From: an uncultured Bifidobacterium sp.
Lineage (GTDB): Bacteria; Verrucomicrobiota; Verrucomicrobiia; Limisphaerales; JADLHS01
Assembly: GCA_964561105.1 (NCBI GenBank)
Contig: CAZLOH010000009.1
Coordinates: 22,679-86,678, forward strand
Reading direction: 5' to 3'
DNA: 64,000 nucleotides
In this document: positions 11,520 through 19,871 of the stretch, piece by piece
Layout of the letters: each line of letters begins with the position of its first letter
Position numbering within the stretch: position 1 is the stretch's first letter
Program-made: the position numbers and the translations under genes
The notes under the pieces: model-generated
What the model was told of the DNA's origin: nothing
The model's database searches: none
The model's input: the letters and a program-made list of their open reading frames with translations, nothing else

Positions 11520-12833
11520 TCAGGTTGCACCGATGGTTTGCAACATCGGCAGGATGACATTTTGGACGAAGGTGGGATGAAAGAGCCAATATGCGGGCGC
11601 GGCAGTGAAGCAGAACATGAACAACCAACCGCGCCAACCGTGACCAAGGCCCGAGGCGCGACCAGCACGGCTGCGTTCCATCAAGACACCGATGCCTTGC
11701 AACAGAAAATAGCCGAACGGCAATCCATACCCGCCCCGGGCGGGAAACGAAATTGCGAGTTCGTGGATGACTCCCGAAATGGCAAAGACGCCGAGTGTCG
11801 CCCAGGTGATACCGGCGCGGCGAGCCAGTGGTCGAAAGGTGAGATCGTGAACGAGTTTGTTGAATGCGGTATTCCAGTGTACGCCCCAGAAATCAGCGAG
11901 CGAGGTGGCGGTGGCGGGCGATTGCATCAACGGCTTGGCGGGAACTCCGGCACGTTGCCAGGCGAGAGCGGCAAGGTGAAAAGCGCCGAAGTGTAGAATC
12001 AAGGTGAGGCTGAACATGGCAAGCCAGGCGTTGGCAATGCTGTTGGGCGTGAATGTTGTATGAGCCGCCAGCCAGAGAAGTGCGATTCCAGCAACTAAAC
12101 GAGTCGTCGCAAACAGCCAATCGCGAGGTTTGGGAGTCGTGGCGTGATGGCCGGTCAAAAACAACTTTGCATCCATGCCCGGCCAGGCGAACAGATAGCC
12201 CAGCGTGCGCGTGAGTCCGGCTTGATCAATTGTTGTCCGAGCTCGTCGCCAGGTCAGCCATTTGCAACCGGCAAACATCGCGGTGACAAAGAGCCACATG
12301 AAGATCCAGTTCGGCAAGTGATTACGGAAGGGTAGCGTCGCGATGAGCAGGAGTGGAAGCGGCAGCCAGTCGAGCCACCGATTACGCGCGGTGACCGTGC
12401 AGTTGCCGCTGGCACAATTTCGATTCGCGGCGATGTGGCGATAAACAGCGCGGTAGATCGGCATCATGCCGGGGATGCGACTGAGCAGCCACAGCGGCCA
12501 AAGCCACCAGACGTGGCGGGCAATCTCCATTGCGGCATCGGCGCCGCCAAGTTCGCGTCCGTCGGGAAGTTCCAGAACCATCTCGGTGAAAACCGGGGCG
12601 GGGGTCCTCCCGGGAGCGCCGGCATCTTGCCGGCGTGTTTCTATTTTGGGTAATAACCTGCCGGCGAGACGCCGGCGCTCCCGGGCCTGCAGCGTTGTCA
12701 GTGTAAAACCGTGACCCACCAGCGTCCGTTCCATCCGTTGCGCCCACCCCACACAGAACGCGCACTCGCCGTCGTAACAAACCAAACCGGCGGCGGGTTG
12801 TCTGGCGTTGTTATCTGTTATTTCCGTATTCAC
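11520..12833 (-). CDS. Fusion protein: DCC-type thiol-disulfide oxidoreductase (DUF393) N-domain plus MBOAT_2/wax-synthase-like membrane O-acyltransferase C-domain
   Basis: 'YDGECAFCVGW' (DCC motif). C-terminal 'SLADFWGVHWNTAFNKLVHDL' and 'SGVIHELAISF' (MBOAT_2-like His). GTG start. Confidence 0.7.
   Translation of the reverse strand: MNTEITDNNARQPAAGLVCYDGECAFCVGWAQRMERTLVGHGFTLTTLQARERRRLAGRLLPKIETRRQDAGAPGRTPAPVFTEMVLELPDGRELGGADAAMEIARHVWWLWPLWLLSRIPGMMPIYRAVYRHIAANRNCASGNCTVTARNRWLDWLPLPLLLIATLPFRNHLPNWIFMWLFVTAMFAGCKWLTWRRARTTIDQAGLTRTLGYLFAWPGMDAKLFLTGHHATTPKPRDWLFATTRLVAGIALLWLAAHTTFTPNSIANAWLAMFSLTLILHFGAFHLAALAWQRAGVPAKPLMQSPATATSLADFWGVHWNTAFNKLVHDLTFRPLARRAGITWATLGVFAISGVIHELAISFPARGGYGLPFGYFLLQGIGVLMERSRAGRASGLGHGWRGWLFMFCFTAAPAYWLFHPTFVQNVILPMLQTIGAT
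12609..12685. repeat. REP-like palindromic element embedded in frame in the DCC domain
   Basis: Perfect 15-bp arms: cccgggagcgccggc (12609..12623) and gccggcgctcccggg (12671..12685). The inner arms pair imperfectly around an AT-rich loop. Translates on the coding strand as '...ETRRQDAGAPGRT...'. Confidence 0.85.
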
Positions 12834-12864: not shown

Positions 12865-13398
12865 TCACCCGCTGATGCCCAACAGTTTCTTAATCTTGTC
12901 GGCCGCTTTCACAAATCGCGTTAAGGCTCCGGTCGGCCAGAGGCGGATTTGGCCATACCAAGCTGTGGTGGTATCGAAAAAGTCGGCCAGTTCTTTCAGC
13001 TTTTGCTCGGTGTATTCGTCGGTTTCCTTGTCCTTGTGCGCTTCGGTCGCGCAATCGCGCAGCATTGCGACCGTGGGATCAATCTCGCGCTTCTTCCGTT
13101 CGTCCAGCACCACGCGGAACATTTCCCAGACCTCCTTCATGCTCTCGAAATGATCGCGCGAATCACCGAGCACATGGACGCGCTTCACAATACCCCAGCC
13201 CTGAAGTTCCTTGAGGCTGTTGCTGACGTTCGAGCGGGCCACACTGAGGGTTTCCGTGATTTCCTCGGCATGAAGCGGTTTGGGCGAAATAAAAAGCAGG
13301 GCGTGAATTTGGGCCACGGTGCGGTTGATGCCCCAGCGCGTGCCCATCTCGCCCCAGTGGAGGATGAACTTCTGTTGGACTGGACTGAGTGTCGGCAT
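12865..13398 (-). CDS. GbsR/MarR-family winged-helix transcriptional regulator
   Basis: 'WGINRTVAQIHALLFISPKPLHAEEITETLSVARSNVSNSLKELQGWGIV', a typical GbsR-type wHTH. First gene of the minus-strand cluster. Confidence 0.8.
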   Translation of the reverse strand: MPTLSPVQQKFILHWGEMGTRWGINRTVAQIHALLFISPKPLHAEEITETLSVARSNVSNSLKELQGWGIVKRVHVLGDSRDHFESMKEVWEMFRVVLDERKKREIDPTVAMLRDCATEAHKDKETDEYTEQKLKELADFFDTTTAWYGQIRLWPTGALTRFVKAADKIKKLLGISG

Positions 13399-13404
13399 GT
13401 TTCC

Positions 13405-13430
13405 TTAATTTCTGTCTGGACAGAAATTAA
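13405..13430. promoter_or_regulatory. Perfect 12-bp inverted repeat (ttaatttctgtc-tg-gacagaaattaa); candidate GbsR-like operator
   Basis: Starts 7 nt upstream of the gbsR-like ATG, in the divergent intergenic region. An extra half-site 'gtttctgtc' lies at 13442..13450. Confidence 0.6.
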
Positions 13431-16664: not shown

Positions 16665-19600
16665 ATGATCGAAATTCCGAAGGCATACGAGCCACAATCT
16701 GTCGAAGATAAGTGGTATCAGTTCTGGTTGGAGAATTCGTGTTTTACCGCCGACCCGGCGCGCGTGAGCGGCAAGCGCCCGGCGTATTCCATCGTCATCC
16801 CGCCACCGAACGTCACGGGCATGCTCCACATGGGGCACGTGCTCAATAACACCATCCAGGACATTCTCAGTCGCAAGGCGCGCATGGACGGCAAGGAAGT
16901 CCTCTGGCTGCCGGGCACGGACCACGCGGGCATCGCCACGCAGGTGCAGGTCGAGAAGGCGCTGAAGAAAGGGGAAAAGAAAACCAAATACGATCTGGGC
17001 CGCGAAGAATTCCTCAAGCGCGTGTGGGCGTGGAAGGAAGAAAAAGGCGGCATCATCATCAACCAGCTCAAGAAGCTCGGGTGTTCGTGCGATTGGACGC
17101 GCGAACGCTTCACGATGGACCCGGAGTATTCGCGCTGTGTGCAAAAGGTGTTCGTCGAGCTTTACAAGCAGGGTCTCATCTATCGCGGCAAGCGCATGGT
17201 GAACTGGTGCCCGGTGTCGCAGACCGCGCTCTCGGACGAGGAGGTGGAAATGAAATCCCAGAAGGGTTTCATGTATCATTTTCGGGTGGAAGCGGTGGAG
17301 CAGGATGGAACGCCCGTGAAAGTTGCGGCGCGGCCCCTCACCCCATCCCTCTCCCCTTCGGAAGGGGAGAGGGTGGCCGATAGGCCGGGTGAGGGGAAAT
17401 CGGGTGGTCCGCAGATTGATTCCGACGGCCGTATCTGGCTCACCATCGCAACGACGCGACCGGAGACCATCCCGGGCGACACGGCGGTGGCGGTGAATCC
17501 AAGAGACCCGCGTTACGCGCACCTCATCGGCAAACACATCGTGCGACCGTTGCCGCCGGAATTGCCGCACGAACAGAAGCTCATCCCGATTATCGGCGAC
17601 GAGCACGTGGATTTTGAATTCGGAACGGGCGTGCTCAAGGTGACGCCGGCGCACGACAAGGCGGACTTCGACATCGGCCAGCGGCACAAGCTGAGCATCG
17701 TGGACATCATGAATCCCGACGGTTCCATGAACGAACTGGCCGGCACGGATTTGAAAGGACTGGATCGGTTCAAGGCGCGCAAGGTGGCGGAGGAAAAGCT
17801 CACCGAACTCGGCGCACTCGTTGAAGCGAAGCCGTACGAAAACAACGTGGGTTTCAGTCAGCGCGCGGATGTGCCGATCGAGCCGCGCCTGAGCGAGCAA
17901 TGGTTCTTGAAGTATCCGGCGGTGGAGCAATCCAAGGCGTGCGTGGAGCAGGAGGACGCGGGAGAACGGAGCGCCGATCTCCGATCCGGCGCGTTGGGAG
18001 AAGCTACAGGAACACGCCGGGTCGGAGACCGGCGCTCCGGCAAAATGCGTTTCCATCCGCAGCGGTGGGCGAAGGTTTATGACCACTGGCTGACGAACAT
18101 TCAGGACTGGTGCATCAGCCGTCAGCTTTGGTGGGGGCATCAAGTTCCGGTCTGGCGACCGCCCCAAGATTGGGGAACTAAGGAGCAAATAATGGACGCG
18201 CTCCATTATTTGCAGGATGTGAAGCGTTCAAAACGGCCTGATGTAGTTGTCAATTTTCCGGAAACGGGAAAAACATCGACAAACGAAAAAGGTGAGCCAC
18301 TAACCGGAATTACAATTGAAGTTTGTCTCGATTCGTCGGCAAGCGATGTTGCAAAAAAACTTGAAGAGTTTGGTTTGGTTCAAGACCTCGATGTGCTCGA
18401 CACGTGGTTCAGTTCTTGGCTCTGGCCGTTCGCCACGATGGGCTGGACGGGTGACAAATCCCAAGACTCCAACAATCCAACACTCCAGGCTTTCTACCCA
18501 ACCACCGACCTCGTCACCGGGCCGGACATCATCTTCTTCTGGGTCGCGCGCATGATCATGGCCGGCTACGAATACATGGGGGAGATGCCGTTCAAGAACG
18601 TGTATTTCACCGGCATCATCCGCGACAAGCAGGGTCGCAAGATGTCCAAGACGCTGGGCAACTCACCCGACCCGCTGGAACTCATCGCGAAGTATGGCGC
18701 GGATGCGTTGCGCTTCGGCACGATGCGCAGCGCGCCGCTCGGTCAGGACGTGTTGTTCGACGAGAAGGACGTCGAATTGGGCCGCAACTTTTGCAACAAG
18801 CTATGGAATGCGTGTCGTTTCCGCCAGATGCAAAGTGCTGCCGACTTGCAGTCGGCAGCAGGTGACACCTCCCGACAGAATGTCGGGAGCACATTCGAAG
18901 TGCAGGGGGAGATCAATCCCAGTCTGCTCACGTCCGATGACAAGTGGATTCTGCTCAAGCTGCACGAAGCGATTCGCGAAATCACCGAGGCACTGACCAC
19001 CTATAATTTCAGCACGGCGGCGCAGGCGTTGTATCGGTTTTTCTGGAGCGAGTATTGCGACTGGTATGTCGAGGCGAGCAAGGCAGTGTTGGTTAAACAA
19101 GTGATTGAGATAAATGAGTTAAATCAGTCTGGCGAGGCTCGAACGGCAACCTCTCATTTAACCAGTCACTCATTTAACGGTTCAACCTCGCGCCGCGCGA
19201 ACACCCTCGCCGTCATTGATTTCGTGCTCTCACACACGTTGCGCTTGTTCCACCCGTTCCTGCCGTTCATCACGGAGGAGTTGTGGCACGGGATGGGTTA
19301 CGCGACGGACATGCCGGAAAATCAGGGGGGCAAGACCATCATGAACGCCCCGTGGCCGAAGCCGTTCGAACTCGAGTTCCGGGACGCCTACAGTCTCGAC
19401 GAGTGCTACCTGGAATTTGCTAATCAGAAATATGAAGTCGTGACGCGGGGACGAGATCTGCGGCGGATTGGAAACATCCAAGCCGGCAAGAAGGTGAAGT
19501 ATGTCCTCAAGCCGAGTCGCGAGATTCTCCCGCACGATGCCGAGGTCATCAAAATCCTGCTCAACGCCGAGGCGCTTGAGATCAACGAGAGTTACGCGGC

Positions 19601-19871
19601 GAAGAAAGGCACGCCGACCGCACACACGCCACTGGGGGAACTATTCCTGCCCTTGGAAGGATTGATTGATGTCGCGGCCGAGAAGGTGCGGCTGACGAAG
19701 GAGAAGGAAAAGATCGAAGCCGAAATCGAGAAGGTGAAACAAAAACTGGCCAATCCAGCGTTCACGCAGAAGGTGCCGCCAGCGGTCTTGCGGGAGCACG
19801 AGCAACGTCTGGTGGACTGGCAGGCGAAGCTGGAACATGTGAAGGCGGCGTTGGAGGCGTTGGGAAGTTGA
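16665..19871 (+). CDS. valS: Valine--tRNA ligase, unusually long (about 1068 aa) because of multiple in-frame insertions
   Basis: HIGH motif 'PPPNVTGMLHMGH'. KMSKS motif 'KMSKTLGN'. 'ATTRPETIPGDTAVAVNP', 'DWCISRQLWWGH', and a C-terminal coiled coil. ATG at 16665. Confidence 0.95.
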   Translation: MIEIPKAYEPQSVEDKWYQFWLENSCFTADPARVSGKRPAYSIVIPPPNVTGMLHMGHVLNNTIQDILSRKARMDGKEVLWLPGTDHAGIATQVQVEKALKKGEKKTKYDLGREEFLKRVWAWKEEKGGIIINQLKKLGCSCDWTRERFTMDPEYSRCVQKVFVELYKQGLIYRGKRMVNWCPVSQTALSDEEVEMKSQKGFMYHFRVEAVEQDGTPVKVAARPLTPSLSPSEGERVADRPGEGKSGGPQIDSDGRIWLTIATTRPETIPGDTAVAVNPRDPRYAHLIGKHIVRPLPPELPHEQKLIPIIGDEHVDFEFGTGVLKVTPAHDKADFDIGQRHKLSIVDIMNPDGSMNELAGTDLKGLDRFKARKVAEEKLTELGALVEAKPYENNVGFSQRADVPIEPRLSEQWFLKYPAVEQSKACVEQEDAGERSADLRSGALGEATGTRRVGDRRSGKMRFHPQRWAKVYDHWLTNIQDWCISRQLWWGHQVPVWRPPQDWGTKEQIMDALHYLQDVKRSKRPDVVVNFPETGKTSTNEKGEPLTGITIEVCLDSSASDVAKKLEEFGLVQDLDVLDTWFSSWLWPFATMGWTGDKSQDSNNPTLQAFYPTTDLVTGPDIIFFWVARMIMAGYEYMGEMPFKNVYFTGIIRDKQGRKMSKTLGNSPDPLELIAKYGADALRFGTMRSAPLGQDVLFDEKDVELGRNFCNKLWNACRFRQMQSAADLQSAAGDTSRQNVGSTFEVQGEINPSLLTSDDKWILLKLHEAIREITEALTTYNFSTAAQALYRFFWSEYCDWYVEASKAVLVKQVIEINELNQSGEARTATSHLTSHSFNGSTSRRANTLAVIDFVLSHTLRLFHPFLPFITEELWHGMGYATDMPENQGGKTIMNAPWPKPFELEFRDAYSLDECYLEFANQKYEVVTRGRDLRRIGNIQAGKKVKYVLKPSREILPHDAEVIKILLNAEALEINESYAAKKGTPTAHTPLGELFLPLEGLIDVAAEKVRLTKEKEKIEAEIEKVKQKLANPAFTQKVPPAVLREHEQRLVDWQAKLEHVKAALEALGS
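17344..17406. repeat. 63-bp nested palindromic element, in frame within valS
   Basis: Outer arms cccctcacc / ggtgagggg. Inner 12-bp perfect stem ccctctcccctt (17357..17368) / aaggggagaggg (17372..17383). Translates as 'PLTPSLSPSEGERVADRPGEG'. Confidence 0.85.
17967..18039. repeat. Palindromic element with 25-nt arms (23/25 complementary), within valS
   Basis: Left arm cggagcgccgatctccgatccggcg (17967..17991). Right arm cgccgggtcggagaccggcgctccg (18015..18039). Same core (ggagcgccg...cggcgctcc) as the element at 12609..12685. Confidence 0.85.
18185..18213. repeat. Perfect 12-bp stem / 5-nt loop hairpin within an AT-rich valS insertion
   Basis: gcaaataatgga-cgcgc-tccattatttgc. Confidence 0.8.
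18836..18889. repeat. Two adjacent perfect hairpins within valS
   Basis: tgctgccgact-tgc-agtcggcagca (18836..18860, 11-bp stem). ctcccgac-agaat-gtcgggag (18869..18889, 8-bp stem). Together they translate as 'AADLQSAAGDTSRQNVGS'. Confidence 0.8.

Follow-up and report, generated by a model that had tools for sequence, protein, structure and literature searches.

A REPIN-like palindrome in the valyl-tRNA synthetase gene of an uncultured verrucomicrobium and the turnover of its insertion slot

In a stretch of 64,000 nucleotides (nt) from contig CAZLOH010000009.1 of GenBank assembly GCA_964561105.1 (positions 22,679 to 86,678, here called the window), our analyses showed a 73-nt palindrome inside valS, the gene of valyl-tRNA synthetase (ValRS). 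It lies at 17967-18039 on the plus strand and has roughly 70% G+C. We think it probable that this segment is a resident copy of a palindromic repeat family resembling REPINs, which are doublets of REP (repetitive extragenic palindromic) units, in a permissive linker of the essential ValRS. An earlier note, made from the letters of this DNA, had picked out the palindrome. What it saw is one element of a larger pattern, with several slots in valS, many palindrome families and a fast turnover of slot content.

Anatomy of the palindrome and its slot

The inverted repeat that the earlier note had described, with 25-nt arms (17967-17991 and 18015-18039) matching at 23 of 25 positions around a 23-nt spacer, was recovered exactly. 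It can be extended to arms of 29 nt, with 26 of the 29 positions paired (90% complementary) and a loop of 15 nt. The left arm, CGGAGCGCCGATCTCCGATCCGGCGCGTT (17967-17995), holds a small stem-loop unit, GCGCCG..CGGCGC, with a GGAG 'tag' ahead of it, and the right arm, AACACGCCGGGTCGGAGACCGGCGCTCCG (18011-18039), is an inverted copy of the left one. It is as the reverse complement of the right arm, GGAGCGCCGGTCTCCGACCCGGCG, that the sequence is met again without change at other loci and in other species. Since both arms are stem-loops with a preceding GGAG, the element is a head-out doublet of hairpin units in the manner of a REPIN. The intervening loop, GGGAGAAGCTACAGG (17996-18010), is read as G-E-A-T-G and drifts like weakly constrained coding sequence.

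Folded as RNA, the palindrome reached -56.3 kcal/mol on the plus strand (z score -7.9) and -58.0 kcal/mol on the minus strand (z -9.4), and none of 200 dinucleotide shuffles was as stable. DNA folding parameters gave a similar picture, with z from -7.4 to -9.4 over the RNA and DNA parameters together. The window contains only one other inverted repeat of comparable size, at 12609-12685. Throughout 17967-18039, stop codons are absent from all sense frames.

The host gene valS (16665-19871, plus strand) encodes 1068 residues identical to database protein P0001, and the insertion separates ...SKACV from MRFHPQRWAK.... The whole slot content spans 17946-18044 on the plus strand (99 nt, 33 codons, EQ...K) and reads EQEDAGERSADLRSGALGEATGTRRVGDRRSGK; it consists of an acidic left linker, GAGCAGGAGGACGCGGGAGAA, the palindrome and the right linker GGCAAA. 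We compared it with 113 ValRS orthologues, all from Pedosphaera/Limisphaerales-type Verrucomicrobiota by their source names; all relatives used in the comparisons are metagenome-assembled. The slot is empty in 29 of these orthologues (26%), which read ...SKACV-AEGR-MKFHP... and thus have 12 nt where the window has 99 nt. In the other 84, 19-73 extra residues stand at exactly the same point, and the window slot adds 29 residues to the empty alleles. The proposal of a palindromic insertion into a short ValRS linker hence held, also against Thermus thermophilus ValRS (1GAX), whose residues 309-364 and 375-416 align with the flanks and which has 10 residues there compared with 38 here. An AlphaFold2 model of ValRS, based on the alignment of 113 sequences, lacked the quality needed to locate the loop (predicted local distance difference test, pLDDT, 65.8; predicted template modelling score 0.47; region 397-494 below 50 in pLDDT). 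We therefore placed it by sequence mapping to 1GAX, in which the insertion site falls at residues 364/375. From this mapping, the slot appears to be a permissive ValRS linker just after the editing domain rejoins the catalytic core.

Directly upstream of the slot, the window carries two 9-mers, GTGGAGCAA and GTGGAGCAG (17919-17954), 21 nt apart. They co-vary with occupancy, as VEQ...VEQ in a filled and VAE...VAE in an empty slot (loci L161 and L162 of our set of relatives, respectively). Another lineage-specific addition to valS is the Pfam domain PF18798, an extra domain in the ValRS proteins P0007, P0008, P0080, P0088, P0091, P0102 and P0116 (1158-1250 residues) that is absent from the window ValRS.

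Several known kinds of element were compared with the segment and rejected. In Rfam, no family matched at its gathering score, the best being a generic long-hairpin family with 27.6 bits against a threshold of 89, and permissive thresholds brought up no relevant family. A promoter and terminator scan found neither a promoter-like site nor a terminator-like tail on either strand of the element. An intrinsic terminator or known structured RNA was rejected because there is no T-run-type site and no Rfam match. An integron attC site does not fit because the GTT/AAC motifs of the element face the loop and not the outer ends, and an intein or intron because the segment is too short, always in frame and without the motifs.

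Dispersal of the family and turnover of the slot

The second palindrome of the window belongs to the same family, as the earlier note had proposed. It has 31-nt arms (87% complementary), a 15-nt loop and lies at 12609-12685 inside the DCC1-like domain of a minus-strand gene (11520-12833), which encodes a DCC1-like thiol-disulfide oxidoreductase fused to MBOAT_2. Both copies contain the blocks GGAGCGCCGG..CCGGCGyGTT-[15 nt]-AACrCGCCGG..CCGGCGCTCC and differ in the 7-9 nt between these blocks, with differences that are complementary on the two arms. The shared pattern GAGCGCCG-N4-14-CGGCG occurs four times, with 0.24 occurrences expected by chance, and covariance-model scores of the two copies were 84 and 68 bits. 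The DCC copy is read on the minus strand and in a different frame from the valS copy (...ERRRLAGRLLPKIETRRQDAGAPG...). Eight orthologues of its host lack the segment and nine carry it, so that this copy, too, is an in-frame insertion. These orthologues came from a protein search; a tblastn search for syntenic DCC orthologues among the loci of relatives gave none.

For a census of copies, which the earlier note had envisaged, a covariance model built from the family (R1) was searched against 1.25 Mb from 80 related species plus the window. It located about 50 distinct places, of which 26 are at this slot, about seven at a second valS slot some 600 nt upstream, five at or just past the valS 3' end and about 15 elsewhere; the latter are spread over approximately 1 Mb outside valS from the 80 related genomes. 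Six species have an identical arm GGAGCGCCGGTCTCCGACCCGGCG at the slot, and four others (L116, L138, L158 and L109) have it at non-orthologous sites. Other families behave similarly, as relatives of slot families A2, B, C, F and G were found at other valS slots, between genes and in frame in other genes. B-type palindromes stand in frame at the same position of Ham1/RdgB in L117 (5583-5635) and L124 (15086-15137); Pfam confirmed this host, whose domain spans 219 residues compared with 186 profile positions. A C-type unit lies in frame in the gene of leucyl-tRNA synthetase (LeuRS) of L146 (19052-19077), also a Pfam-confirmed host, where it separates the catalytic core from the editing domain. 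In viral contigs, a scan for exact arms gave 0 matches.

Four of the five copies at the valS 3' end stand 38-47 nt past the stop codon (L116 12060-12203, L138 11922-12079, L158 11910-12081 and L097 12381-12551). In these four species, the arms are identical to the right arm of the window copy and enclose a 92-106-nt loop rich in short GATGTT/CATCCAA-like repeats. The window valS stop has no such downstream copy.

The content of the slot changes quickly between relatives. With a clade-specific flank query of genome contigs we gathered 85 relatives' loci with DNA, nine of them empty and 76 filled at the same codon position. Nearly all filled slots fold strongly, with z mostly from -3 to -10; the few occupants without a remaining fold are family H (z ~0), L126, L152 and L132. 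Across Limisphaerales-type Verrucomicrobiota, the occupants fall into about a dozen unrelated sequence types. Many of them share only the outer stem GGGAGCGC...GCGCTCCC, and some are compound, with sub-hairpins nested in the loop. Other occupants have canonical REP-like ends, GTAG...CTAC in families D and L (GGTAGGGCTCGC..., TGTAGCGGCG...) and GTGG...CCAC in family B. Linkers around the palindromes vary from 0 to 21 nt on the left, where codons are mostly acidic, and from 3 to 9 nt on the right; an identical left context, GAGCAGGAAGATGATTCGG, precedes one A-type and several B-type palindromes. The encoded peptides are completely different between species, and the segment is thus not conserved protein, in line with the earlier note.

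Slot content is scattered across the ValRS tree. Of the ValRS pairs with 96-99% identity over 842 conserved columns, only 55% have the same content. Different content is found in valS genes of about 97% identity, and empty proteins are 96.6-96.9% identical to filled ones; the L138/L158 pair has an overall identity of only 86%. In a filled/empty pair, a GTAG-tagged dimer with its linkers stands in place of 12 nt. The adjacent codons differ consistently, AEGR...M-K...E/D in empty and EQ...K-M-R/H/Q...Q in filled alleles, and this linkage decays within about seven residues.

The pair L163/L164 shows the exchange at high resolution. Outside hot spots these genes have 0-9 substitutions per 100 nt, and three blocks are wholly different. 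At the upstream slot, one has the CCTCACCCC...GGGTGAGGGG type, which is also the type of the window, and the other a GGAG doublet. At the slot studied here, a GGAG-type palindrome corresponds to a GTGG-type one, and the flanks agree as far as GTGGAGCAGGAGG to the left and again from AAR-ATG-CGT onward to the right. The third block (alignment columns 1800-2100) is non-palindromic, about 300 nt long and only distantly homologous between the two, which suggests from sequence that segmental allele exchange or assembly chimerism acts on valS, too. Given this block, slot swaps may come about by REP-type insertion or replacement or by homologous recombination, and we make no choice between these routes. 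In the window, a matching non-palindromic variable block lies at approximately 18160-18310, between ...HRIPVW and TQDPDVLDTWF....

In total, valS has at least three such variable slots. Five perfect stems of at least 11 bp are found in the window, three of them in valS and one in the DCC gene; shuffled sequence contains about 1.3 such stems. The upstream clade-variable slot (17334-17396, plus strand) carries a nested palindrome of another family, CCCCTCACCC..CCCTCTCCCCTTC-G-GAAGGGGAGAGGG..GGGTGAGGGG, translated as PLTPSLSPSEGERVADRPGEG. This family occupies the same slot in L093, L120 and L163 with 90-91% identity, and other species have GGAG-type doublets there. At 18836-18889 (plus strand), a third clade-variable slot, 'SAADLQSAAGDTSRQNVGS', contains two short perfect hairpins, TGCTGCCGACT-TGC-AGTCGGCAGCA and CTCCCGACA-GAA-TGTCGGGAG (fold z -5.2). 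An AT-rich imperfect inverted repeat at 19090-19178 (z -2.1) coincides with another clade-variable valS position. Relatives of the hairpins at 18836-18889 and 19090-19178 were sought in 1.8 Mb, and none were found.

Constraint on the arms and competing explanations

In twelve species the valS slot holds a copy of clear homology (family A, alignment A5), and in these copies compensatory changes maintain the stem, a point that the earlier note had proposed to test. In family A, 96.2% of cells are paired, and slid registers fall to 25-48%. Both sides have changed at 5 of 22 pairs, in 13 cells, and the covariation score was reached by none of 500 shuffles. Mean stem identity is 0.81 compared with 0.63 at flanking valS third-codon positions (p = 2e-11), and spacer identity is 0.55. 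Variability in the stem is flat by codon position (0.13/0.11/0.12), and a third-position excess is seen in the spacer (0.13/0.29/0.54) and in the flanks (0.10/0.05/0.24). On the left arm, the paired changes are non-synonymous (D/G and S/P/I). Conservation of the stems above synonymous sites and the lack of codon periodicity show a constraint that acts on the nucleotides of the arms and not on the peptide. Furthermore, valS seems not to need the hairpin, since the slot is empty in 26% of orthologues and the fold has been lost in some occupants.

Probably, two inverted hairpin units, each tagged with GGAG and separated by a short spacer, are resident in frame in the valS linker. As valS is essential, only in-frame, stop-free occupants would survive, and the element would hence be translated as a hydrophilic loop of about 29 residues. 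The sequence of this loop would itself not be selected, and the nucleotide sequence of the arms and their pairing would be kept. Such a constraint could originate from recognition by a hairpin-specific single-strand DNA enzyme, for example a transposase of the HUH type such as a RAYT (a tyrosine transposase associated with REPs), and/or from homogenisation against other copies; it would not be a service to valS. Exchange at the slot could proceed by REP-type insertion and replacement or by homologous exchange of alleles. Direct repeats that might represent a target-site duplication were found neither around the two window copies nor at the slot junctions in 76 species, as would be expected for HUH-type rather than DDE-type mobility. 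A fixed target nucleotide was sought at the slot junctions, and none was present. A DDE-type miniature inverted-repeat transposable element (MITE) was rejected because these terminal repeats lack a target-site duplication at the window copies and at the slot junctions.

Several observations weigh against such a resident, probably selfish, REPIN-like repeat. The spacer of the 12 family-A copies is alignable but drifted, which points to one old insertion whose stems were conserved in place. Young transposition products are expected to keep the spacer conserved too. A purely selfish model does not predict stem conservation in place, so that gene conversion, by which the arms would be homogenised, or a role of the hairpin at the level of the host may be considered as a minority possibility. 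Hairpin density in valS is 2.5 times that of its flanks (0.58 vs 0.23 per kb, p = 2e-11), which is odd for random insertion into an essential gene. Copy number looks low, with two copies in the 64-kb window and roughly one per 70 kb outside valS in relatives. The units of the window copy and of its family start with GGAG (CGGAGCGCC...) and not with the GTAG or CGTC of the described REP superfamilies. No RAYT or other transposase was found, and a RAYT motif scan gave 0 matches in 1.8 Mb, a sample in which a single-copy gene is unlikely to be included. With the source genome covered by the window alone, we infer mobility from distribution only.

The valS slots might also act as landing pads, at which a site-directed mechanism repeatedly installs or swaps hairpin cassettes of different families at the same few codons of this essential class-I tRNA synthetase gene, and apparently of LeuRS, with stems under nucleotide-level selection. 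A candidate route may be an HUH enzyme that replaces a REP unit with another one at its cleavage tag. We regard landing pads as possible, though we would not expect them. It is unlikely that, instead, host selection favours a hairpin at domain junctions, in single-stranded DNA or in the sense mRNA of valS, for ribosome slowing during co-translational folding of this large multidomain enzyme or for mRNA stability or processing, and that family membership is incidental. Such selection would account for unrelated palindromes that share one slot and nearly all fold strongly, for an in-place stem conservation that exceeds the synonymous rate and lacks codon periodicity, and for dense valS hairpins in three clusters, one at this slot (0), one at about -600 nt and one at +900 to +1050 nt from it. 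In many predicted folds, the flanking codons GTGGAR and TTCCAY can pair and lengthen the stem, and the LeuRS element in L146 lies near an editing-domain junction as well. However, 29 of 113 slots are empty, also in close relatives of filled ones (96.6-96.9% protein identity), and hairpin potential is gone in several occupants (family H, L126, L152, L132). The same arms also occur between genes and in unrelated genes, which fits a repeat family rather than a valS-specific device, and there is no bias toward the sense strand in stability or G.U usage.

A palindrome that was generated locally and is immobile, by template switching or fold-back replication with quasi-palindrome correction, appears quite unlikely; similarity between loci would then be a convergence of GC-rich sequence. 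Self-correction would explain paired arm changes without selection, and the two A.C mismatches of the window copy resemble a half-converted state between the GATC..GATC and GGTC..GACC of its relatives. Hairpins nested in the loops of compound occupants would fit as well. Nevertheless, 24-nt arms are identical between species and between non-orthologous loci, and the window copies, which lie in unrelated genes, have the tag, the stem blocks and a spacer length of 15 nt in common. Several families turn up again at various valS slots as well as in other genes, and the canonical GTAG tags on other occupants are not predicted by local generation. We consider it very improbable that the peptide is selected as a flexible acidic/basic loop of about 29 residues, modulating tRNA binding or editing, with the hairpin as a side effect. 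Codon-like periodicity in the spacer, with residues rich in G/E/D/A/T in all family-A copies, would agree with this, as would consistently acidic left linkers and the position next to the editing-domain junction. Slot peptides are, however, unrelated between families and missing in 26% of orthologues; stem codons lack periodicity, paired changes are non-synonymous on one arm, and in the DCC gene this DNA family is translated in a different frame. The structure model, itself poor overall, gave no confident fold for the segment.

The earlier note had suggested that the native strand is antisense to valS, with the element acting in an RNA from the minus strand, where G.U pairs take the place of A.C mismatches. 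It took both mismatches of the 25-nt arms to favour G.U on the minus strand. This is correct for position 11 (A.C on plus, G.U on minus), whereas position 19 behaves in the opposite way (U.G on plus, A.C on minus). In the window copy, the minus strand has two G.U and one A.C, the reverse of the plus strand, and folds better by only 1.7 kcal/mol. Minus-strand folds of slot inserts are slightly richer in G.U (202/2689 vs 143/2650), but this excess follows from base composition, as the minus strand is richer in T. Over 77 inserts there was no strand bias, the sense strand being the more stable one 34 times and the antisense strand 43 times (Wilcoxon p = 0.19), and among the 12 closest orthologous copies, those of family A, sense was favoured 8 to 4. 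A.C-type cells (seven) and G.U cells (four) of family A do not differ significantly. There is no promoter-like site, terminator-like tail or Rfam match that would speak for a minus-strand RNA, and the sibling copy has the reverse reading direction with respect to its host. An antisense native orientation is hence hardly tenable.

Related systems and further observations

REPINs have conserved ends, a less conserved spacer, a hairpin fold and commonly compensatory changes (PMC3116915). They are mobilised by RAYTs, are by definition extragenic and number hundreds per genome, with a cognate RAYT per population (Bertels & Rainey 2011, PMC3116915; PMC3337134). The valS element resembles them in its two inverted palindromic units around a spacer with a total of about 70 nt, in conserved ends and compensatory changes, in long vertical persistence at its locus and in the absence of a target-site duplication. 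In contrast to REPINs, the valS and DCC copies are intragenic and in frame, and abundance appears low in the DNA analysed. The anatomy and covariation of REPINs are thus present without their extragenic location, and membership in this class is incomplete.

Probably of the same kind are intragenic REPs with GTAG or CGTC tags (Di Nocera et al. 2013). These are singles or dimers wholly inside open reading frames, and the dimers encode 20-30 residues (PMC3733652). They are most numerous in the verrucomicrobium Opitutus terrae, include cases in tRNA synthetase genes, and two Xanthomonas species carry different REPs at nearly the same point of recB (PMC3733652). Similarly, the window element is a dimer translated as 29 additional residues, and other occupants of the same valS slot carry GTAG...CTAC or GTGG...CCAC ends. 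One coding slot with a dozen families that turn over between near-identical genes is, however, not described there. Rickettsia palindromic elements (RPEs) stand in frame in unrelated, often essential genes, are translated as additional segments that protein function tolerates and are seen as selfish DNA (Ogata et al. 2000; summarised in PMC10969869). The present case is alike in that one family lies in frame in unrelated genes (valS and the DCC-family gene, with sister families in Ham1/RdgB and LeuRS). RPEs are about 100-150 bp long, AT-rich and Rickettsia-specific, with a conserved peptide per family and insertions that are mostly old and stable (PMC10969869). By this description they are set apart from the window element, which has 73 nt with about 70% G+C, is verrucomicrobial and has no conserved peptide in a slot that turns over; no direct alignment to RPE consensus sequences was made. 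By analogy, we would regard the valS element as a variant of intragenic REP dimers that resembles Rickettsia RPEs. It also shares with MITEs its small size, inverted ends able to fold and the intragenic position. Classical MITEs (Correia, ERIC, BOX and similar) are small non-autonomous elements with foldable inverted ends and are occasionally intragenic. In DDE-derived MITEs, target-site duplications flank the terminal inverted repeats, and these are missing at the window copies.

That selfish repeats add segments to proteins through in-frame palindromes in essential genes is rare, but has been documented. The valS slot offers a good natural experiment, as it is codon-precise in hundreds of uncultivated Verrucomicrobiota, empty in about one quarter and otherwise filled with about a dozen palindromes. 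Should the swaps be enzyme-mediated, the slot would show how REP-type elements choose their targets, which is not known in RAYT systems; if they are recombinational, it shows how mosaic an essential gene can be. Landing pads, if true, would amount to a previously undescribed targeted in-frame cassette exchange in essential genes, possibly with a host-level role of the hairpin. In practice, such inserts inflate and fragment protein families. Low-complexity peptides of the 'AGKMPALP / RRQDAGAP' type, which we ascribe to such inserts, are probably common in annotations of the Planctomycetes-Verrucomicrobia-Chlamydiae group.

Six verrucomicrobial valS loci among the relatives (L083, L085, L096, L110, L122 and L123) are filed under Klebsiella, Bifidobacterium or Bifidobacteriaceae titles and apparently belong to mislabelled metagenome-assembled genomes. 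Elsewhere in the window, a perfect 12-bp palindrome, TTAATTTCTGTC-AA-GACAGAAATTAA (13405-13430), lies just upstream of a minus-strand MarR-family gene (12865-13398) and looks, from its sequence, like an operator.

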